DNA from: a virus | Lineage: Duplodnaviria; Caudoviricetes | Virus record (IMG/VR): IMGVR_UViG_3300036546_000144 | Coordinates: 1-33,905 of that record | Reading direction: 5' to 3' (one strand) | DNA: 33,905 bases | Shown here: positions 1,634 to 31,321 of the stretch, piece after piece | Layout of the letters: every line of letters starts with the position of its first letter | Position numbering within the stretch: position 1 is the first letter of the stretch | Program-made: the position numbers and the translations under genes | Notes under the pieces: generated by a model | The model's database searches: none | Told to the model about the DNA's origin: nothing | What the model saw: the letters and a program-made list of their open reading frames with translations, nothing else

Positions 1634-4192
1634 ATGTTTGAATACCTGGTAAATCATGCACACAACAACGTGTGGTGTACCCCTGACCAGGACTATCAAT
1701 TTATCTTTAAACCGGCCCGTATCACCGGATCACGTGGTGTACTGAACCAAGTTAAGGTGGAGTGGCAAACGTATCGCCTCCCCACACTTAAGGAAGTGTA
1801 TCACGTGTATCAAATCGGTCAGGTACATCCCAGACTGTTGGGTATCTTAACTGATGACGATACGTGGCACTGTTTCAGTGAGTTGAGTGATGTTGATAAC
1901 CTGGTAGTCGATCTCTACACGAAGGCTGGTATTGAACTCCCCCGTGGGGAATGTTTCTTTATGCGGACACGGAATCGAAACATTGTGTTGGCATTGAAAC
2001 ACATTCCACGTGTGGTGGATCAAGTAAATAACCCTGTGTTTGTAAGGTTCTATTCCAATGCTTATTTTAGTAGTGATCGCAGTGACCCTGTTCACGACAC
2101 GGTGCATGTACAATCGTTTGTAATGGACCGCGTGGACAATTACCTTCTATTCCAAAGGGATTATCATGATCACCAAAAACTGAAAGGACATACGTACCTG
2201 ATTTATAACGGACTTTACGTACACGACAGGTTACCCACTGAAGTGGCGGTAGGTGATCGGCTTGAGTTTGTTTACGACAGTACTATTACTCAGGTAATCG
2301 ATTTACCTATAAATACACTGGAAACGTTTGTCAGTGAGTTGGATGGTAAACGAAAATACTTAGTCCACGTACCTAAACGCGTGGATGACCGGATTGAATA
2401 CCGCGATGACATCGATTTCTGGTTACTGGATAAAAACGGGGAAAAGTTTAAAGGGGTTTATTATCACAAGAATCAGGAAGATTCCGTGCGGATGGTTACC
2501 CATAAGGACTATTCATTACCGGTACCTTACTTGGTTGGGTACGTCACCGATAACGAAATCCTCACCGATATCCGGAACTGTACCCTTCGCCTGCATATAC
2601 GTGAATCCGGTTACGATAGACCGTTGGTGTTTGAACACAATCGAATTCATGAGCTCTACAAACTTGACGATGTTGATATTGTTCGGGCTATGTTGGGGAT
2701 CGATTCAACTGTCAGTGTTTGGCGTGCCGAAGAATTGGAAAAATCGGCTTATACTGAGATCATGCGGGCTAACGGGCGCAGCGTTACACCTGATCTGGTT
2801 CAAGCGGCATATGGTTATAACGCGATTACGTCTCTGGTGGCAAATACGCCACAGAAAACCGTACACGGTGGCGGGCGCTGGACGACTGAACTACCGTACA
2901 TGTTATCCCACCAAGCCACCGTCTTTGAATATAACCAGAGTGGACACTTAACTGGGTTTTATCAACACACCGATAACTCGGTATACGTTACGCGGGACCT
3001 TGGAACTCGCAGTGTTGAAGCACTGTCAGGGGTAGGTGGTATTCGCTTGACCACACGGTACAATGAAGAGGAAAGTGTACTTGATCCTCGTTACAATCAC
3101 CGGTTCTATAAAAGTCCGTTAATCCAAGACGCACCAACCAATCAATGGTCTACTGCAGAAGAAGGGGTGGACTATACGGTTGTAGACGGTAAAGTCACCT
3201 GGAGTGTCGATCGTAACCAGGTCTACACGGCTGTTCGCGATGACTCACACTTCTTGACTTACACGTACGAAATGGAACCTGAGGACGGGTTACTGCGTTT
3301 TAGTGTGGTGGCTGAAGAGAAACGGTCGGATGGTAACTGGTATCAACAGGTCTGTCATTTGCCGTTAGGGAAACTGGAACTATGGTTGAATGGGCGGCCC
3401 CTTATTGAACACCTGGACTATTTCGTTCAGTGGCCTGAAGTGATCATCACCAATAAAATGTATTGGGTAGAGGGACCACAACAGATCACGGTTCGGTGTA
3501 CGGGGTTCTGTAACGACGACATGTCGCTAACACCGGTGGCCGAATTTGGTTTTGTGGAACACGGTCTTCTGAGTCGTAACCGCAGGTATGACATTCGTGA
3601 CGACAAAGTCATGCGGGTCATTGCTGGGGGAACGCTGCAGCATAAACAGGATTTGGGTTTTGCTGAGAACCATTCGGGGGTTTACCTCGAGGGTTTGGCT
3701 AACGGGACACCGTACGTCATTGATGATGTCATTGTGCCGGTCAAAGGTGTGGATGGTGAGGACACGTACAGTCTTAAATCTAAAGCGTTGTTAATTGATG
3801 CGGAGATTTCAGACTACCTTACACACAAGTTACCTGAACCTGAAATTCCAGAGATCAGTCCGATCACCGAGCGGTATATGGTCTACAGTCCGTTCTGTTC
3901 TAAGATCATGTATGACTTCATCAATGGTGTCTTTTACCCTGAGGAGATCAAGGGACAGTACAGCGAAATTGACATTCGGAACTGGTGTAAGGGATACGAG
4001 TGGTTATTGGCGTACGACCCCACGCAACACCCGATTGATGATCGGTATGTGGCAATACATCCCCATAACCTCTTCAATGTGGTTGAGTTAGATATTTATC
4101 AGTACATGTTCTTAGAGCGTGTAATCAGTTTTTATTTAGACGATAAAGTTGACTTGAGTAGCTTTATCGCTGTCAAAGAAGGGTGGTTATAA
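1634..4192 (+). CDS. Large virion structural/baseplate protein (phiKZ gp27-like)
   Basis: ~852 aa ORF starting 1 nt after the previous stop; N-terminal NVWCTPDQDYQ motif; synteny with sheath and terminase. Confidence 0.7.
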   Translation: MFEYLVNHAHNNVWCTPDQDYQFIFKPARITGSRGVLNQVKVEWQTYRLPTLKEVYHVYQIGQVHPRLLGILTDDDTWHCFSELSDVDNLVVDLYTKAGIELPRGECFFMRTRNRNIVLALKHIPRVVDQVNNPVFVRFYSNAYFSSDRSDPVHDTVHVQSFVMDRVDNYLLFQRDYHDHQKLKGHTYLIYNGLYVHDRLPTEVAVGDRLEFVYDSTITQVIDLPINTLETFVSELDGKRKYLVHVPKRVDDRIEYRDDIDFWLLDKNGEKFKGVYYHKNQEDSVRMVTHKDYSLPVPYLVGYVTDNEILTDIRNCTLRLHIRESGYDRPLVFEHNRIHELYKLDDVDIVRAMLGIDSTVSVWRAEELEKSAYTEIMRANGRSVTPDLVQAAYGYNAITSLVANTPQKTVHGGGRWTTELPYMLSHQATVFEYNQSGHLTGFYQHTDNSVYVTRDLGTRSVEALSGVGGIRLTTRYNEEESVLDPRYNHRFYKSPLIQDAPTNQWSTAEEGVDYTVVDGKVTWSVDRNQVYTAVRDDSHFLTYTYEMEPEDGLLRFSVVAEEKRSDGNWYQQVCHLPLGKLELWLNGRPLIEHLDYFVQWPEVIITNKMYWVEGPQQITVRCTGFCNDDMSLTPVAEFGFVEHGLLSRNRRYDIRDDKVMRVIAGGTLQHKQDLGFAENHSGVYLEGLANGTPYVIDDVIVPVKGVDGEDTYSLKSKALLIDAEISDYLTHKLPEPEIPEISPITERYMVYSPFCSKIMYDFINGVFYPEEIKGQYSEIDIRNWCKGYEWLLAYDPTQHPIDDRYVAIHPHNLFNVVELDIYQYMFLERVISFYLDDKVDLSSFIAVKEGWL

Positions 4193-8175: not shown

Positions 8176-8880
8176 TCACGCGACCTTCTCTAGAACTGGA
8201 CGCCAACCATAAAGACGGTTTACATCGCTTTTTCTATAAACCCGGTAGTGAGAATAACCTTGTCGACCACGATTCACGGCGTTACCACCATCAGATTCCC
8301 GACACCACGTTATACCCCCATCCACCGATGACCCGCCATTACTGATCATACCGAGATCGACATTCGTGAATGGGACAAATGTGATGTGTGGTTCTTCAGA
8401 GGCTGTGGTATTTCCGGACTGTGTAAGACTTCTATCCACTAAACGGTATATAATCCGATTCCACTCACTACCGTGTGTGATTGGGAGGTCGTAACCCATT
8501 TGAGTGGTGGGCCTCAGCCCTGGTGCGACTCCACCTAACAAACGGACCTTAAACGTGTCATTGTTTATAACGATGGTTTGGTCACCATTAATTAGACCAA
8601 TATTGGCCAATTGATCCCATGTTACGGAATGTAGAAATGGTTTCTTAGCCACATAAAGTTCGATTCCATCGAGTCCCACGTTCAACCATCCCGAATCTTG
8701 GTTGATTGGTGACCCGACTGCTAAACCCAAAACGGAAGCTAAGGCGTCGCCAGTGATGAACTCTTCAGCTGAAACCTCTCCGTACCAATCGACACCACCG
8801 TCCGAAACAATGGGTCGTTTACCCCCCTTTTTTTTTCCTTTCCCTCCGGCTGTCCCGGAGAGTAACATTCTCTCAAACAT
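8176..8880 (-). CDS. MFERMLLSG paralog family copy 1; putative virion/tail-associated protein with a CLec-like C-terminal domain
   Basis: Shares MFERMLLSGTAGGKGK, DGGVDWYGEV, HGSEWNRI and GWRPVLE with 22155-22874 and 30617-31321. Function is inferred. Confidence 0.7.
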   Translation of the reverse strand: MFERMLLSGTAGGKGKKKGGKRPIVSDGGVDWYGEVSAEEFITGDALASVLGLAVGSPINQDSGWLNVGLDGIELYVAKKPFLHSVTWDQLANIGLINGDQTIVINNDTFKVRLLGGVAPGLRPTTQMGYDLPITHGSEWNRIIYRLVDRSLTQSGNTTASEEPHITFVPFTNVDLGMISNGGSSVDGGITWCRESDGGNAVNRGRQGYSHYRVYRKSDVNRLYGWRPVLEKVA

Positions 8881-12842: not shown

Positions 12843-13199
12843 ATGACTATACTCTTCGGTAAACTGGTTCGAGAAACCTATACCAGTCCAAATGGCGAAT
12901 TCCATTTGTATCTGTTACGTATCCATGGGGGTGAAATGGCATCAGCGGTATTCATTGGTACGCACGCCCCTAAGGCGTTAAAGAGTGTTGAATACCAGTT
13001 ACACGGAGAGTGGCAGCATAACCCTCGTTACGGTCGACAATTTTTGATTGACCATTTTAGTCGTCCGGTTAAAGAGAATCGCACAGTGGATCAACGGTTG
13101 GATACTCAGACCGTTATTCAAGCTAAGAAACGGATTGATCCTAACGTGTATGGGATTAAACAAGACGAGTTATCGACTACGCTAGAATGGTGGTTATAG
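12843..13199 (+). CDS. Stand-alone RecD2 N-terminal-like OB-fold protein
   Basis: GEWQHNPRYGRQF matches the G-x-W-x-x-H/N-P-K/R-Y-G-x-Q-F motif of RecD2/YrrC N-termini; no helicase motifs follow. Confidence 0.6.
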   Translation: MTILFGKLVRETYTSPNGEFHLYLLRIHGGEMASAVFIGTHAPKALKSVEYQLHGEWQHNPRYGRQFLIDHFSRPVKENRTVDQRLDTQTVIQAKKRIDPNVYGIKQDELSTTLEWWL

Positions 13200-13209
13200 T
13201 GCGACTAAT

Positions 13210-13237
13210 AGGAGTCTCTCTAAGGGACTCCTTTTTT
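13210..13237 (+). terminator. Intrinsic terminator
   Basis: AGGAGTCTCT-CTA-AGGGACTCCT followed by a T-run. Confidence 0.8.
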
Positions 13238-13246
13238 ATGCCGAAT

Positions 13247-13271
13247 TAAAAATATTTCAAATATATATTAC
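13247..13271 (+). promoter_or_regulatory. Phage early promoter motif, copy 2
   Basis: TAAAAATATTTCAAATATATATTAC upstream of AAAGGAGAAACACAATG. Confidence 0.8.
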
Positions 13272-13308
13272 TAATTTGAATTCCCACAGTTTCTAAAGGA
13301 GAAACACA

Positions 13309-13746
13309 ATGGATAAGCGTGAAGTTTTTCGCAGTAACATATCAGCATGGACCCGTCGACTGGGGCTTGAGAAGCCCACCGACATTGATTCAGTGGTCAA
13401 GGTGGCCCAGAAGATGGGACTTGACATTGGAAGTCGCTTCACCGCGATGTTTGTGGTGGCGTCCAACTACCTCCTGACTAAGGACTTGATTAATGATCGG
13501 GTTCAGCGGAGGAAGGTGGCGTGGGTGACTGCTCACGTTGCCTACTCTTTTTGCTATGGTGAACATAGTAAAACGGGTGGTAGCATACCGGCGGTGACCG
13601 CATTATTCTCAGGTAAAGCCGGTGCCGAGTTCAGTGACCGCGAGCGGACACTCGTGGCAGATGTGGCAGGGACTATGATTGGTAGTCGATCTGTCGATCG
13701 TAGTAAACCCAATATGGTTAACAACATCCTCAAGAAGGTGCGTTGA
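13309..13746 (+). CDS. Hypothetical early protein, weak resemblance to a degenerate ImmA/IrrE-type domain
   Basis: Strong RBS; own promoter and terminator; RRKVAWVTAHVAYSF...ERTLVADVAGTMI. Confidence 0.65.
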   Translation: MDKREVFRSNISAWTRRLGLEKPTDIDSVVKVAQKMGLDIGSRFTAMFVVASNYLLTKDLINDRVQRRKVAWVTAHVAYSFCYGEHSKTGGSIPAVTALFSGKAGAEFSDRERTLVADVAGTMIGSRSVDRSKPNMVNNILKKVR

Positions 13747-13759
13747 TTAACCGGTGTAA

Positions 13760-20705: not shown

Positions 20706-21674
20706 ATGTCAACAGCTAATAAAGGTACAATTCGTCTTTACGGTGCAGGTGGTGCCGGGATTAACTGTATCTCCATTTTCAATAATGTCGAAGAAGTACC
20801 TGGTTGCGCTAAAATCCTAACCAGTTACATTGACACCAGTCGCTCTAACCTGAAGCCCGAATTCAAAGAAGACGATTGTTACCTTTTGAAAGGAGTGGAT
20901 GGTTCTGGTAAAATCCGTCGGGAAAACCACCGTGAAATCTCAGAGTCCATTAAACAGATTCTTTTGGAGCACAAACCCGGTGACTTCAATGTGGTGGTCT
21001 CTTCAGCGTCTGGTGGTTCAGGGAGTGTCCTGGCTCCGCTCTTGCTGGCCGAGTTGCTCAAACGCGGCGAGTCTGTTGTGTACTGTCTGATTGGTTCAGC
21101 CGAGTGTACGGTCACCGCCACCAACACACTGAATACCCTGAAATCAATCGCTGCAATCTCTGAACGCAACGACGTTCCTGCTATTGTTTATTATGAACAC
21201 AATGACGATCGCCCGCGCAGCGAAGTAGATACCTCTATCCGTTACGCCATCGCGACCCTGGCTAACCTGAGTTCACGTCAGAACACAGAACTAGACAGTA
21301 AAGACATTTCCAACTGGGTACGTTTCAATTACAGTACAGGCGTACCGGCCCAGTTAGCACTCCTGGATGTTTTCACTGACCCGGACCAGGTGTCATTGGT
21401 TAAAGACCCAATCTCCATTGCCAGCCTTTACAACGACCCCGACCAAACCAAGGTTAAAGCAACACCTGAATACAGCTGTGTGGGCTATATGACCAACAAA
21501 CCCAAAGACTATGACCAGATTCACTTGGTTATCTCGACTGAAGGTTTGGAAGGGATCTACGACAAGATTGGTGAAACAGTTAACAGCTATGTTGAACGTC
21601 GTGAAGGTCGCCAAGCCAAACTTCGCATCGTCAGTGAGAATGATAATGTGACTGACGATTACCTCGTACTTTAA
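20706..21674 (+). CDS. phuZ: Phage tubulin PhuZ
   Basis: YGAGGAG loop, IDTS, G(S)GK(I)R, tubulin signature SASGGSGS, ELDSKD T7-like loop, acidic C-tail DDYLVL. Confidence 0.92.
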   Translation: MSTANKGTIRLYGAGGAGINCISIFNNVEEVPGCAKILTSYIDTSRSNLKPEFKEDDCYLLKGVDGSGKIRRENHREISESIKQILLEHKPGDFNVVVSSASGGSGSVLAPLLLAELLKRGESVVYCLIGSAECTVTATNTLNTLKSIAAISERNDVPAIVYYEHNDDRPRSEVDTSIRYAIATLANLSSRQNTELDSKDISNWVRFNYSTGVPAQLALLDVFTDPDQVSLVKDPISIASLYNDPDQTKVKATPEYSCVGYMTNKPKDYDQIHLVISTEGLEGIYDKIGETVNSYVERREGRQAKLRIVSENDNVTDDYLVL

Positions 21675-21898
21675 TGAATAGGTGTTACATGACCACTGGA
21701 TTGTTTGTGTGTGAAAGCTGTAACTGTGTGGACCATATTGAATTGGCGTACACGGTACAGGAGAGACAGTACGACCACGCCCAGTGGTTGTGTACAGAAT
21801 GTCAAGGAAAACCTTGGCATAACCAATTCCCTAAACTCCCTTTCGATGAAACAGAAGACAACGTTGTAAACTACCCCAGTGGAATTGGTCTGGGTTAA
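21674..21898 (+). CDS. Small Zn-finger-like protein
   Basis: CESCNC...CTEC...WHNQFPK; start overlaps the phuZ stop. Confidence 0.7.
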   Translation: MNRCYMTTGLFVCESCNCVDHIELAYTVQERQYDHAQWLCTECQGKPWHNQFPKLPFDETEDNVVNYPSGIGLG

Positions 21899-21902
21899 TG
21901 TG

Positions 21903-22068
21903 TATAGTATGCAAGTGTTAGTTCCTTTTCTGTCGATGCGCTGCTCTTTAACAAATCGGACTAAAGAACGGGTTTATACAAACCCGTTCTTAAACTTGTC
22001 GATCGTCTTTACGGTCTTCTTAAGCATTCGTAAATCGTATGAATGCGACCCTTGAATGGGTCACTATA
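21903..22068 (+). ncRNA. Candidate structured RNA (~165 nt, five stems)
   Basis: Consecutive stems TTAGTTCC/GGACTAA, AAGAACGGGTTT/AAACCCGTTCTT, GATCGT/ACGGTC, GCATTCGTA/TATGAATGC and GACCC/GGGTC, closed by TATAGT/ACTATA; followed by a terminator. Confidence 0.45.
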
Positions 22069-22075
22069 GAGAGAA

Positions 22076-22106
22076 CCTCCCCTTATTAGGGGAGGATTTC
22101 CTTTTT
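22076..22106 (+). terminator. Probable intrinsic terminator
   Basis: CCTCCCCT-TATT-AGGGGAGG followed by ATTTCCTTTTT. Confidence 0.65.
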
Positions 22107-22154
22107 ATGCTCTAAATTATGAAGGTTACCTTTAATAAAGTATAGGACTTTAAA

Positions 22155-22874
22155 ATGTTTGAGAGAATGTTACTCTCCGGTACAGCCGGAGGGAAAGGAA
22201 AAGGGAGAAAACTAGGACTGTTTAACCGACCCTTACTCGCCAGTGACGGAGGCGTGGACTGGTATGGGGAGGTTACGAGTGAGGAATTGATTGATGGGGT
22301 AGGTTTAGCCAGTCTGATAGGGTTAACCGCAGGTACAGCTCAGTATCCCGATGCAGGTTGGCTCCACGTAGGACTGGATGGTGGACCGGATCTCTTTGTT
22401 GCGAAGAAGCCTTTGCGCTACAACCTGACAGCGGCAGAGGCAAAGGTCGCAGGTCTGTATTTGGGACATGAAATCGAGATTGAGGGTGTCAGATACCGCG
22501 TACGTAATCTGGAGGGTGTTAATAAAAATGCCACATACGGCAGCAACACAACCTTGTACGACTCTGTCGAAACCCATGGGACCGAATGGAATCGGATCAT
22601 GTACCGATTGGTGAAGCCTTCAGAAATAGGCAGCCAGATCGCGTCTGATACCACAGTGTCCGAAGGTGAATATGTACCGTTGGCATCCTATAGTTATGAT
22701 GAGCTTGGCATAAACGCTATGAATGGATCACTGTCCATCACGAATGTTCGAGGTCGGCCGGACGTTAATGCATTCTTCAGAGGAGGTGGAGCGGTCTCGT
22801 CAGTACATAAATCGACAACTTATAGCTATAGTGGCACAAATCGCGGCTGGCGTCCTGTACTCGAGCGTGTGTAA
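22155..22874 (+). CDS. MFERMLLSG paralog family copy 2
   Basis: Same conserved blocks as copies 1 and 3; ends GWRPVLERV. Confidence 0.75.
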   Translation: MFERMLLSGTAGGKGKGRKLGLFNRPLLASDGGVDWYGEVTSEELIDGVGLASLIGLTAGTAQYPDAGWLHVGLDGGPDLFVAKKPLRYNLTAAEAKVAGLYLGHEIEIEGVRYRVRNLEGVNKNATYGSNTTLYDSVETHGTEWNRIMYRLVKPSEIGSQIASDTTVSEGEYVPLASYSYDELGINAMNGSLSITNVRGRPDVNAFFRGGGAVSSVHKSTTYSYSGTNRGWRPVLERV

Positions 22875-22883
22875 AAAACTACA

Positions 22884-23392
22884 TAGGACCAGATGATATA
22901 GACGACAAGTACGTCTTAGGTCCTAGGTTAATCTCTAGAGGGATTGAAAATTTAAACCTTATTACTGAGGTAGCGCTTGGTGATATAAAGAGATGCGCCC
23001 ACACTACGTTAGCTGACGAGTTGGGAAGTTGTAAACGAAAACCATAAGAGAGTGAAACTTCGCCGATATAGGTTTTGCTTAAGGTTCAGTGTGCAGCCTT
23101 TAAGGTATCAACAGGTAAATGTCGACCACTACTTCTGGTACCTTAATGGAAGCACGTTGGTGTGTTGCGTAAACGAGTGAGGTGCAATCGGAGTTTTCTG
23201 ATTCCTTTGGCCGATTGTAGGGGGTTGCGGGACCCCACCAAACTTGTACCCGGCTTTTAATCCGACTCGGTGTTCGAGGAGTAGACTGCAACTCTTCTTT
23301 TAGTGAGGTTTCCGGTATAACCTCGTTCACTGGTACACTGAGTCGTTTTAAGAGTATGACATTCCGTAGGACGGGGTAGCGGACCTTTTCAA
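22884..23392 (+). ncRNA. Candidate large ornate non-coding RNA (~520 nt)
   Basis: No credible ORF; at least nine stems with G-U pairs on the + strand, including a long-range helix TTCAGTGTGC/GTACACTGAG; ends at a strong terminator; about 1 kb from the tRNAs. Confidence 0.55.
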
Positions 23393-23393
23393 A

Positions 23394-23429
23394 AATTCAG
23401 CGGGGCGAAATCTCCGCTGAATTATTTTT
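23394..23429 (+). terminator. Intrinsic terminator
   Basis: AATTCAGCGGGG-CGAAAT-CTCCGCTGAATT followed by ATTTTT. Confidence 0.8.
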
Positions 23430-23458
23430 GCGTTTAAGAAGGACTAGAGGAAAAGAAT

Positions 23459-23932
23459 ATGTATTCAACATATCTTAGTGCGCTAAATGATTTATCTGGT
23501 ATAATGGACTCCGTCTATAACACTGTATGTGATTATGCTGAACATATGCCACAGGTGTTAATAAAAGAATTTCGAACAGCAATAGTACACGGACCCAGAC
23601 AGACCGGTAAAAGTCGAGCAGCGGTGAATTTCTATAGTAACCAAGAGTGTGCTATACTGGTAGTGCCTAACCGGGTCCATGTTGTATCAATGAAGCAATG
23701 CGTTAACCACGTGTTTGTCGAAACAACTTTGTCAAAATCGCAAAGCGAAAAAATAATCACGGCATCAAAATTACTCAAGCTGCTAAATGAATATGATTCA
23801 ACACTTTTAAAGGAAACCGACATTTTTGTTTTGGACATCATGGGTAGTCCTGAAGAAGGTGAGCTGATATCCAGTTTAACGGATTGGCTAACAAAAAATA
23901 AACGATTTAAAAGTAAAGTTTTTATTTTATAA
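23459..23932 (+). CDS. Small P-loop protein with a terminase-like Walker A
   Basis: IVHGPRQTGKS, AILVVPN and DIFVLD (Walker B-like); GAGGA RBS. Confidence 0.7.
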   Translation: MYSTYLSALNDLSGIMDSVYNTVCDYAEHMPQVLIKEFRTAIVHGPRQTGKSRAAVNFYSNQECAILVVPNRVHVVSMKQCVNHVFVETTLSKSQSEKIITASKLLKLLNEYDSTLLKETDIFVLDIMGSPEEGELISSLTDWLTKNKRFKSKVFIL

Positions 23933-23971: not shown

Positions 23972-23996
23972 TAAAATTAATTCAGGTATATATTAT
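23972..23996 (+). promoter_or_regulatory. Phage early promoter motif, copy 5 (upstream of the tRNA region)
   Basis: TAAAATTAATTCAGGTATATATTAT, identical to copy 6. Confidence 0.75.
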
Positions 23997-24471
23997 CAAA
24001 TTGAACCAATAACCTTAATGAAGGCGAACACATGATTAACTATTACGGTATACTTAAAGAGGTCCTATCTCCAACGCCATAAAAGTGATGTTAGCTAACT
24101 ACGCTGACCCCTAGTAAGATTAAAATTTTTGAACTGTAAGGAAAAGAACATGTTCACAGAACCGATGGCGGGAGAGGCTCGTATTGTGTGGTCACACGTA
24201 AGATGGCTGAAATTACAGAATCGGTCAGACCCATTTACTTACTAAAGTAAAAAAATACTTCCCTTCTAAACGTATGACGAACTAACATTCGTTCAAACAT
24301 AGTGAATACCTCCTGTTGTAGATCGGAGGGTGAAATTAAGTAACCCTCCACCCACTTAGAAACTCGTGTTCGGGTAAATATGGTAAAAGCGTTCAGAGTA
24401 ATGGGGAAACGTTAGGTCGCCTTGAACTAACGTTATCCTATTAAAAAAAAAAGACTGATTAAAAGTTTTAT

Positions 24472-24558
24472 ACGGGTATGGCCAAATCGGTAAAGGCAAC
24501 AGATTTAAAATCTGTCGGTGTTAGCACCTTGCGAGTTCGAGTCTCGCTACCCGTACCA
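24472..24558 (+). tRNA. tRNA-Leu (anticodon UAA)
   Basis: Acceptor ACGGGTA/TACCCGT + A + CCA; anticodon arm ACAGA-TTTAAAA-TCTGT; long variable arm GGTG-TTAG-CACC; T arm GCGAG-TTCGAGT-CTCGC. Confidence 0.95.
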
Positions 24559-24639: not shown

Positions 24640-24728
24640 TCACTATTAGGGCCTATAGCTCAGTTGGTCAAGAGCATCCGTAAAAAAATATTATTTGTAT
24701 GTGTGCTCTAACCAAAGCATAATTAGTT

Positions 24729-24881: not shown

Positions 24882-24931
24882 AATCCATTGGTCACAGGTT
24901 CAAGTCCTGTTGGGCCCACCATACATTAAAT

Positions 24932-26926: not shown

Positions 26927-27427
26927 ATGCGGTTACCTTGTTTTAATGACGTGCATCCCAAACCACTAGAACACTGTCGACCCAATCAGTTGGTGAACAT
27001 CTACCTGATGACGTCTTATCTTTATTACCATTTGGACGAAAGTGTGATAACAGATGCTGAGTTCGATTACGTCTGCACTGAACTATATAAACATTTTGAC
27101 GACATTACACACCAGCACAAATATCTGATAGATAAGGATCAGCTAATAGCCGGTACAGGCTACTATATAGCCCACAACGAGTTTCCCAATATCGTAATAG
27201 GCGGTGCTAAGATGTGGTTAAAGGAGTCCCTCTCGCGACAAGGTCGTTGGGGGACACGAAAAGTAAAAAAGTCCCAAAAGGAATACGTCCGTAAGAAGAT
27301 CATTGCTAATACAGTGGAGGAGATTAATGGTTGCATGTCCAACATGGGTTTATGGGATGCCAGCATTAATTCCATCGACCGGATAAATCCCCGTACAGTA
27401 GTGGCCACCGTTGACTGTTTAGAATAA
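26927..27427 (+). CDS. Protein containing an NAD+-dependent DNA ligase domain Ia-like module
   Basis: SYLYYHLDESVITDAEFDYVCTEL matches the LigA Ia pattern YY-x-x-D-x-P-x-I-S-D-A-E-Y-D; no KxDG adenylation motif. Confidence 0.65.
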   Translation: MRLPCFNDVHPKPLEHCRPNQLVNIYLMTSYLYYHLDESVITDAEFDYVCTELYKHFDDITHQHKYLIDKDQLIAGTGYYIAHNEFPNIVIGGAKMWLKESLSRQGRWGTRKVKKSQKEYVRKKIIANTVEEINGCMSNMGLWDASINSIDRINPRTVVATVDCLE

Positions 27428-30616: not shown

Positions 30617-31321
30617 ATGTTTGAAAGAATGTTACTCTCCGGGACAGCCGGAGGGAAAGGAAAAGTGAAAAAGGCGGCTTTATTTAACCGACCCCTACTC
30701 GCCAGTGACGGTGGGGTCGATTGGTACGGGGAGGTTTCCAGTACTGAATTAATCGATGGGGTAGCGTTAGCCAGCCTGATAGGGTTAACCGCAGGTATAG
30801 CTCAGTACTCGGATGCAGGCTGGCTGTACGTCGGGTTAGACGGTACTGAATTATTAATCGCAAAACGTCCTTTGCGTTATGGCCTGACCTGGAACCATAT
30901 CAATGAGGTCAACGCCGTGTACGGGAACCGTACCATCGAAATAAACAGTCAGCTCTATAAAGTCCGCCTCCTTAAAGGGGCGAACTCCGACCCTACAGTA
31001 AACGCAGAAGGTTATGACGTTCCCTCCTCTCACGGGAGTGAATGGAACCGTATTTTCTACCGGTTAACCAATGACACCTACCTCAACAGTCAGAATACCA
31101 AAGCCTCTGAGGGCGAGTTTACTCACTTAGCCCGGTATTCCGAGAGTGATTTACTCTTGTACCACAGTTCCGGTAACGGGAGCTACTGCTACTGTCAAGA
31201 AACCTCAGGGAGTAACCGAGTCGCTCGCGGTGGCATGGGCGTTTCTTTCTTGAGTATGCGCGGGGCACCGACTGCGGATTCGGGCCGTGGTTGGCGTCCT
31301 GTACTCGAGCGCGTCAATTAA
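30617..31321 (+). CDS. MFERMLLSG paralog family copy 3
   Basis: Same conserved blocks as copies 1 and 2; ends GWRPVLERVN. Confidence 0.75.
   Translation: MFERMLLSGTAGGKGKVKKAALFNRPLLASDGGVDWYGEVSSTELIDGVALASLIGLTAGIAQYSDAGWLYVGLDGTELLIAKRPLRYGLTWNHINEVNAVYGNRTIEINSQLYKVRLLKGANSDPTVNAEGYDVPSSHGSEWNRIFYRLTNDTYLNSQNTKASEGEFTHLARYSESDLLLYHSSGNGSYCYCQETSGSNRVARGGMGVSFLSMRGAPTADSGRGWRPVLERVN

Follow-up and report, generated by a model that had tools for sequence, protein, structure and literature searches.

The element at positions 22884–23429 is a strongly conserved large phage non-coding RNA, which represents an uncatalogued sequence family and carries a non-canonical hammerhead-like front. We have little doubt that it is a real non-coding RNA gene. 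The window, i.e. the whole stretch of DNA that was analysed (33,905 nucleotides), is the entire 33.9-kb contig of a phiKZ-like phage. The preliminary description of this DNA had proposed a large structured RNA on the + strand near phage tRNA genes, followed by a terminator and possibly of a new class. This proposal was supported, and the RNA is independently encoded and without a match in Rfam. It missed a 65-nt deletion in the window copy and a hammerhead core, and the presence of this core changes the likely biogenesis of the RNA from the one described there.

Conservation of the element and independence from its neighbours

The contig encodes the terminase large subunit, virion proteins, a DNA polymerase and the tubulin PhuZ (20706–21674). 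The nearest cultured match of this PhuZ, in Xanthomonas phage LucasX, is just 46% identical, and therefore the lineage is uncultured. The element sits between a virion-protein paralogue gene (22155–22874), starting 10 nt 3' of its stop codon, and an ORF of 157 aa (23459–23932). One tRNA-Leu and one tRNA-Met gene lie 1.1–1.4 kb downstream in the window and in the related contigs L001 and L091. The stretch had been described as ORF-free, and no + strand ORF of at least 60 aa was found in 22875–23458. The one − strand ORF (23100–23330, 76 aa) gave no PHROG match and is frameshifted in L001 and in the sequencing run X17.

Two further full copies of the element were obtained, one in L001 (several of the loci detected are this same contig) and one in L089, whereas L091 is another assembly with an element identical to that of L001. 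Words of the element are carried by 24 public runs, eight of which are covered by the comparison; differences from runs were taken among those listed, the remainder being mostly from X5 and X11. The three full copies differ at 11 of 465, 13 of 466 and 20 of 533 letters (2–4%), compared with 24/153, 34/152 and 31/151 four-fold sites of PhuZ and 27/112 of a second gene (16–24%). This indicates that the non-coding element is under six- to eight-fold constraint versus silent sites. The nearby tRNA-Leu differs between the window and L001 far more than the element does.

The genes at both sides of the element are not fixed. The upstream gene is absent in L001, carries an internal deletion in X5 and has a paralogue in its place in L089, and both L089 and X5 lack the downstream gene. 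Throughout these losses and swaps of flanking genes, the element was retained together with its promoter-like motif and a terminator, which demonstrates that the element is independent of the neighbouring genes. The virion-protein family concerned (phrog_1062 group) has three paralogues in the window, at 8176–8880, 22155–22874 and 30617–31321, and close relatives differ from one another by the gain, loss or exchange of its members.

The promoter-like motif, an A-run followed by CTACA (22871–22884, + strand), was found by motif scan and likened to the middle promoter of phiKZ, in which TACT is centred 22 nt ahead of the start and follows an A-rich repeat (PMC8244752). Judging from this likeness, transcription would start at about 22903–22905. 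In L001, the motif is the first conserved block, and a terminator is located ~25 nt upstream of it. At the other end of the element, the terminator claimed in the preliminary description was confirmed as an intrinsic terminator-like hairpin of 12 pairs with a U-tail (23394–23423, + strand), which has changed letters in L001 and L089 and is nevertheless kept in both.

Several minor features were observed around the element. An AT-rich motif, which we take to be similar to the phiKZ early promoter, is present in six + strand copies (10918, 13264, 13831, 15895, 23989 and 26881), and the motif scan placed all six ahead of clusters of small orphan genes. Between the early-type promoter at 23989 and tRNA-Leu there is a second ORF-poor stretch (24040–24470), parts of which are 87–92% conserved in L001, with insertions; its portion 24140–24470 folds with a z of −2.3. 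The sequences of tRNA-Leu(UAA) of the window (24472–24558) and L001 (5364–5451) are strongly divergent, pointing to gene replacement between these two close relatives. A tRNA 5' half (24649–24681) and a tRNA 3' half (24883–24921) with compatible acceptor strands flank tRNA-Met; L001 has the 5' half without the 3' half, and both halves are probably remnants of tRNA gene turnover. Farther downstream, 26927–27427 encodes a stand-alone 166-aa protein consisting only of the NAD+-binding N-terminal domain of DNA ligase (Pfam Nlig-Ia, E 8e-13), which could serve as a nucleotide sensor or sponge.

Folding of the stretch and the compact 3' domain

Folding of the + strand was better than that of dinucleotide-shuffled controls (z −3.81, with 0 of 100 shuffles as good; z −2.68 without the terminator), as compared with a z of −1.78 for the − strand. 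Some of the changes between relatives preserve pairing solely through a G-U formed on the + strand; the orientation proposed in the preliminary description was upheld. The folding signal is confined to 23088–23386 (z −3.73, 0 of 200 shuffles as good), whereas the 5' part (22904–23087) gave a z of −0.28. The idea of the whole stretch as one uniformly paired domain was not supported. Thirteen other 300-nt windows of the same contig ranged from z +1.5 to −4.5, and therefore folding alone does not single out the element.

All 11 stems named in the preliminary description were found in the sequence, between 22884 and 23342, with very different mean pairing probabilities in the window: 0.99 for GAGGAGT, 0.98 for TTAAGGTATCA, 0.94 for TAGGACC, 0.88 for GAGGTT, 0.79 for GGGGTT, 0.41 for TGCAATCGG, 0.23 for AGACG, 0.20 for AAAACC and 0.11 for AATCTC. 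For AGGTT/AACCT, the second and third placements had a probability of 0.00, the 5' placement being outside the three listed. The helix TTCAGTGTGC/GTACACTGAG, which had been thought to close a multibranch domain over a span of ~240 nt, had a pairing probability of 0.00, as a local helix of 11+8 pairs (0.99) takes up its 3' strand. The outermost 5' stem, TAGGACC/GGTCCTA, was not supported either: a G-to-A change breaks it in L001 and X5, and the predicted start comes only after its 5' strand. Another helix joining the 5' and 3' ends of the RNA (22918–23/23381–86) had a probability of 0.00 and was dropped.

The predicted fold of the compact 3' domain (298 nt, 23088–23385, + strand) comprises one long hairpin (23088–23158) and a multibranch domain closed by helix 23159–23168/23376–23385. 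Inside the latter, the predicted helices are 23173–78/23242–47, 23183–91/23211–19, 23221–26/23231–36, 23253–60/23348–55, 23263–73/23335–45, 23276–82/23291–97 and 23305–10/23319–24. The first base of this stable domain, 23088, comes directly after the predicted ribozyme cut discussed below, and bases 23088–23094 are paired at 0.87. Neither pseudoknots nor kissing loops with support were detected in the 3' domain. Palindromic kissing loops were considered and rejected, as palindromes were present in 4 of 10 loops (null 3.0, P 0.34), which is no enrichment, and loop complements were short and lacked variant support among the few sequences compared.

Changes at paired sites were analysed on the L001 copy. 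Helices with a probability above 0.75 contain 30 distinct changes, and pairing survives 16 of them (null 13.5, P 0.08). In the segment 3351–3404 of L001, 11 of 12 changes break predicted pairs, compared with 15 of 18 that keep them elsewhere, marking 3360–3404 as a variable linker; helix 3351–58/3397–3404, predicted at 0.82, is broken in L089, X7 and X17 and was discarded. In the 3' half, 10 of 13 paired-site changes keep the pair, including all 10 transitions (P 0.017, for a split that was made afterwards). The preliminary description had proposed a test of covariation among homologs. Two-sided changes were limited to two, both in X7 and one of them read from a loose contig end. These pair changes support the 3' fold, short of proof by covariation, and the predicted fold of this domain holds as far as shuffles and one-sided changes reach.

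The hammerhead-like front domain

The 5' part of the RNA (22904–23087, + strand; 184 nt in the window and ~250 nt in the relatives) is made up of leader hairpins and a hammerhead-like domain. The core C3-A9 (CUGACGA, 23013–23019) and the segment G12-A15.1 (GAAA, 23037–23040) are present, with no change listed in any variant. Stem II (23020–23036) is opened by the 10.1-11.1 pair, G23020-C23036, which is followed by one or two U-A pairs and loop II, all compatible with the sequence. Stem III (23040–23043/23083–23086) has four Watson-Crick pairs, including A15.1-U16.1, and a probability of 0.76–0.90 in transcripts ending just past the tail. Position H17 is C23087, and the descriptor search predicted cleavage after this base (23087–23088), in a UUC triplet; UUC cut sites also occur in hammerheads with complete stems of unrelated phages (L178, L184 and L208).

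This arrangement is rare by chance. Among 20,000 dinucleotide shuffles, a fraction of 0.0004 combined the core with the G10.1-C11.1 pair and GAAA. When the core was kept constant, 3,000 shuffles produced a stem III of four pairs along with a stem I of six pairs, allowing for up to 10 inserted nt, at a frequency of 0.013 for Watson-Crick pairs and 0.034 if G-U was permitted. None of 41 core and core-adjacent positions is variable, as compared with 47 of 245 in the 5' part (listed differences, with positions chosen post hoc), an invariance that was equalled by 2 of 245 circular shifts.

Stem III may be extended by 23045–23048/23078–23081 and 23054–23060/23070–23076, partly supported by X7, in which this stem shows one two-sided change (A-U to C-G), two one-sided changes that keep pairs and two that break them. 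The window copy, as assembled, lacks 65 nt here (L001 3383–3447; deletion site 23066–23067), a segment present in all nine relatives that cover the site. The deletion removes the 3' strand of a helix with 22972–22981 (X23 and X24 were left out of the judgement in the pair check of this helix) and, from stem III, just the tip, so that a closed hairpin remains. No long repeat flanks it.

One departure from the hammerhead consensus is the absence of the N2.1-N1.1 pair adjoining C3. Base G23012 faces A23088 and cannot pair with it, and therefore stem I needs an insertion before C3, either of 2 nt in a weak register (pairing with 23007–23010) or of 7 nt in a strong one (23088–23091/93 with 23002–23005/23000–23005). 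Hammerhead hits with a mispair beside the core were rejected by Perreault et al. (PMC3088659); the same paper describes saltern hammerheads with a 2-nt insertion near C3 that cleave slowly and need high Mg2+. Since the pair beside C3 is missing, the 5' part is not assigned as a member of the type I hammerheads; it would work like one or descend from one.

A second obstacle is a rival hairpin over the core (22998–23025), with a probability of 0.82–0.98 in short transcripts. Its fold is ~10 kcal/mol better (−42.9 versus −33.2 kcal/mol, in two-dimensional folding with the pseudoknot left out), and stem II had a probability of 0.00 at all ten transcript lengths folded in two dimensions. The 5' strand of the rival hairpin has only two variable sites, 23002 and 23006, and these are its two bulged bases. 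According to the predicted folding, 23152–23158 captures the stem I strand once it is transcribed. A candidate loop II pseudoknot of six pairs (23028–23033/23092–23097) is possible and invariant, with no covariation, and belongs to a type known from the hammerheads of PMC3088659; together with stem I it would occupy 23000–23097 (+ strand). On balance, the 5' domain is probably hammerhead-derived; as to whether the predicted ribozyme cuts to a meaningful extent in the cell, we are nearly undecided, leaning slightly to doubt.

The type I hammerheads of phages and prophages (PMC3088659; RF00163) have in common with the element the C3-A9 and G12-A15.1 segments, U16.1 and C17, a short stem II opened by G10.1-C11.1, loop II pairing with the stem I flank (a candidate in the element) and a phage intergenic setting, and the saltern variants HHmeta and HHphage also share the stem I-C3 insertion. 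The element differs from known hammerheads in the size of this insertion (2 nt weak or 7 nt strong), in a stem III insert of 40–105 nt, in the rival hairpin over the core, in being embedded in a 500–570-nt RNA instead of flanking a gene, and in having no Rfam match and a cut that is predicted only. Silence of Rfam on the hammerhead is uninformative because L184 and L208, hammerheads with complete stems and stem III inserts, escape Rfam too. In the unrelated phages L178, L184, L208, L275 and L280, type I hammerheads are located directly upstream of ribosome-binding sites, often several per locus, and some of them have branched stem III inserts and are missed by Rfam. An unannotated hammerhead-like core, with a loop II complementary to an upstream stretch, was also observed in an intergenic gap of Burkholderia phage FLC9 (L174 ~1470–1560; 182,524–182,546 of the phage, − strand).

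RNA libraries and interpretation of the element

Contigs on the element were present in all three RNA runs compared (two studies), with depths of 8, 106 and 33. They begin at 22918, 22921 and 22927 and end at 23111 (X23 and X24) and 23126 (X18), crossing the predicted cut by 24 nt in the former two and by 39 nt in the latter; therefore the libraries contain uncut RNA (or DNA carried over). RNA contigs on the 3' domain are missing from X18 and X24 and ~14-fold shallower in X23. No RNA run gave a contig on the conserved intergenic region 22000–22150, which is covered by the DNA run X5. The absence of RNA contigs on the flanking genes was not counted, because the relatives lack these genes or have replaced them. 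As these runs were found via the element itself, their contigs are a weak hint of transcription. The contig pattern argues against both complete cleavage and a build-up of the 3' piece, unless this highly paired piece is lost in reverse transcription.

The explanation that we tentatively prefer is a middle-phase transcript with partial or conditional self-cleavage, whose released 3' RNA acts in trans on a protein. Transcription would run from the middle-type phage promoter at ~22904 to the terminator. The ribozyme would have a folding window at a transcript length of 190–200 nt, before 23152–23158 captures the stem I strand, and competition with hairpin 22998–23025 would make cutting slow or conditional. 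Partial or conditional cleavage after C23087 would release a 298-nt core (~340 nt with the terminator) with both ends in helices, and a 5'-hydroxyl buried in a helix together with the 3' terminator would make this product stable. The released RNA might then act on a protein during infection as a stable scaffold or decoy. This last role is a still more tentative guess, made by exclusion and from the likeness to other large phage RNAs, because the element has no ORF, no antisense partner (none within the window, best self-match E 0.66), no fixed neighbour gene and no tRNA, tmRNA, RNase P or intron match. The searches made yielded neither a partner protein nor a target or a distant homologue.

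Large RNAs of bacteria and phages are rare, and ROOL, GOLLD and OLE have no assigned job. A built-in ribozyme would offer a direct handle on such an RNA, as both the cut and its product would be defined and an allele with a natural deletion of 65 nt is at hand. If the proposal is true, the hammerhead architecture tolerated at the stem I joint would be wider, and nucleus-forming phages, whose non-coding RNAs in the reports consulted are below ~250 nt, would gain an RNA-level component in their biology. In these reports (PMC8545117, PMC10914365, PMC11512511), the small RNAs of phiKZ and 201phi2-1, likewise non-coding RNAs of nucleus-forming jumbo phages, are ~90–250 nt long and mostly UTR-derived; the element is two to five times longer and has its own promoter-like motif and terminator. 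No large or hammerhead-led RNA of phiKZ-like phages was found in the literature covered (mostly open-access articles).

The preliminary description had compared the element with ROOL and GOLLD, large ornate RNAs of phages and prophages, of which ROOL averages 581 nt and GOLLD often exceeds 800 nt (PMC5737381, PMC12286853). The likeness is sound with regard to size class (~500–570 nt), multistem junctions, a phage site near tRNA genes, a variable internal linker and a function without assignment. By sequence the element is neither ROOL nor GOLLD: no Rfam family matched the window copy or the full-length L001 copy at E≤10. It also differs from them in its 3' domain without supported pseudoknots or kissing loops, in its hammerhead-like front and in its occurrence, in the searches made, in one narrow phiKZ-like clade. 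No model matched for tmRNA, RNase P RNA, SRP RNA, 6S, OLE, group I and II introns or the other small Rfam ribozymes, and motif likenesses to tmRNA, RNase P and group I introns had no model support. ARAGORN gave nothing at its 90% threshold and inconsistent calls at 60–80%; regarding an intron identity, the element interrupts no gene.

An alternative that we rate as unlikely, if worth serious attention, is that the RNA works uncut, as one 500–570-nt ROOL/GOLLD-like particle or multimer, the hammerhead-like letters being a disabled relic or part of hairpin 22998–23025 and a long irregular helix. The size and the site 1.1 kb upstream of tRNA genes fit the description of ROOL (PMC5737381, PMC12286853), the RNA contigs span the predicted cut, the rival hairpin is favoured with the variable bases at its two bulges, and the linker L001 3360–3404 recalls those of ROOL and GOLLD. 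However, neither copy has an Rfam match, loop palindromes are unenriched, loop-loop pairing lacks variant support, and the hammerhead core arrangement is rare by chance. We find it improbable that the functional species is instead the 5' piece of ~260 nt ending at ~23111, trimmed by a double-strand nuclease (e.g. RNase III) at the internal loop of hairpin 23097–23149. This piece is the deep one in the RNA contigs, two libraries from different studies end exactly at 23111 without loose letters, and 23111 lies in a bulge after a 14-pair helix. Nevertheless, a strong hairpin can make reverse transcription or assembly stop at one and the same base whatever the library, X18 continues to 23126, contigs cannot show RNA ends, and it is the 3' domain that is best conserved and best folded. 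Cutting at another place, the GUC of the 65-nt segment (L001 3420–3422), which would make the window copy a dead allele, is quite improbable. This site has a canonical GUC, a G-C pair beside C3 and eight more pairs (0.021 of shuffles), and one X24 change keeps a pair; however, it relies on one additional A within GAAA and on 5 nt that bulge out a single pair away from the core, with a stem III of three pairs, it conflicts with the extended stem III backed by X7 and the deletion, and the RNA contigs cross it with at least 70 nt on the 3' side.

Explanations without an RNA that acts in trans fare worse. The start 10 nt after the stop of 22155–22874, and the position upstream of 23459–23932 and two tRNAs, would suit a cis-acting element, either the 3' UTR belonging to the virion-protein gene or a leader involved in processing or regulating the tRNAs and the gene that follows. 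We regard this as very improbable: both neighbours are lost or replaced in relatives, the element ends in its own terminator, and the early-type promoter at 23989 precedes the tRNAs. Least credible is the absence of any functional RNA, the stretch then being a DNA element, a chance series of hairpins or a small protein gene on the opposite strand. Other 300-nt windows (13) do reach similar z values, to −4.5, and the pair test of the whole RNA was not significant; against this stand the constraint over silent sites, the changes that preserve pairing solely as + strand G-U, the frameshifts of the − strand ORF in L001 and X17, and the RNA contigs.

Searches for homologues were negative outside this clade. 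Among 50,697 phage records, blastn found no match at E≤1 with the window copy and seven chance matches of 21–31 nt (E 2–8) with the L001 copy, and 72,556 plasmids gave no match; by sequence, the element is in no cultured phage or plasmid among those searched. In pattern scans of viral contigs, the true loci (1 of 77, 1 of 19, 2 of 107 and 1 of 40) were all the L001 contig; metagenome contigs gave 3 true loci of 29 (L089, L091 and L100) and genome contigs 0 of 6. One further match in genome contigs, L129 (E 3e-4), was seeded by the search word itself and was rejected. The covariance models R1 and R2, weak because they were built from three copies ~97% alike, found nothing in 28 other PhuZ loci. 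R1 found nothing in five whole records or in FLC9, nor R2 in FLC9 and LucasX, and with filters off neither model gave a match in the FLC9 locus. Homology to the 770-nt gap behind PhuZ of Burkholderia phage FLC9 (best local match 15 of 16 letters; P 0.025, reached in one of 11 comparisons) was not accepted.

A more elaborate version of the preferred reading is speculative and, taken as a whole, rather improbable. In this version, a hammerhead that can be switched, with 7 nt inserted at its stem I joint, would be kept inactive by a hairpin over its own core until a signal of the infected cell triggers it. It would then free a 300-nt RNA of a new structural class, used by nucleus-forming phages as a scaffold or anti-defence decoy, and the structured gaps downstream of PhuZ in distant relatives would represent analogues or diverged members. 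No sequence link was found between the element and these gaps (L137, L161, L173 and L138).

The gaps themselves are ORF-free and hairpin-rich (L137 11226–11690, L161 11231–11580, L173, from FLC9, 12985–13754, and L138 11080–11540), and share a position behind PhuZ or behind its small Cys-rich neighbour, a homologue of window 21674–21898. The L137 gap has a z of −7.5 with its terminator, and that of L161 starts with a hammerhead-like core with a 10-pair stem III and a mismatched stem II. Another ORF-free gap, L168 12820–13220 (z −7.7), has U/C-rich hairpin loops resembling anti-Shine-Dalgarno sequences. Finally, a group I intron (RF00028, 62 bits) was observed inside the PhuZ gene of a distant relative (L169 9361–9955).
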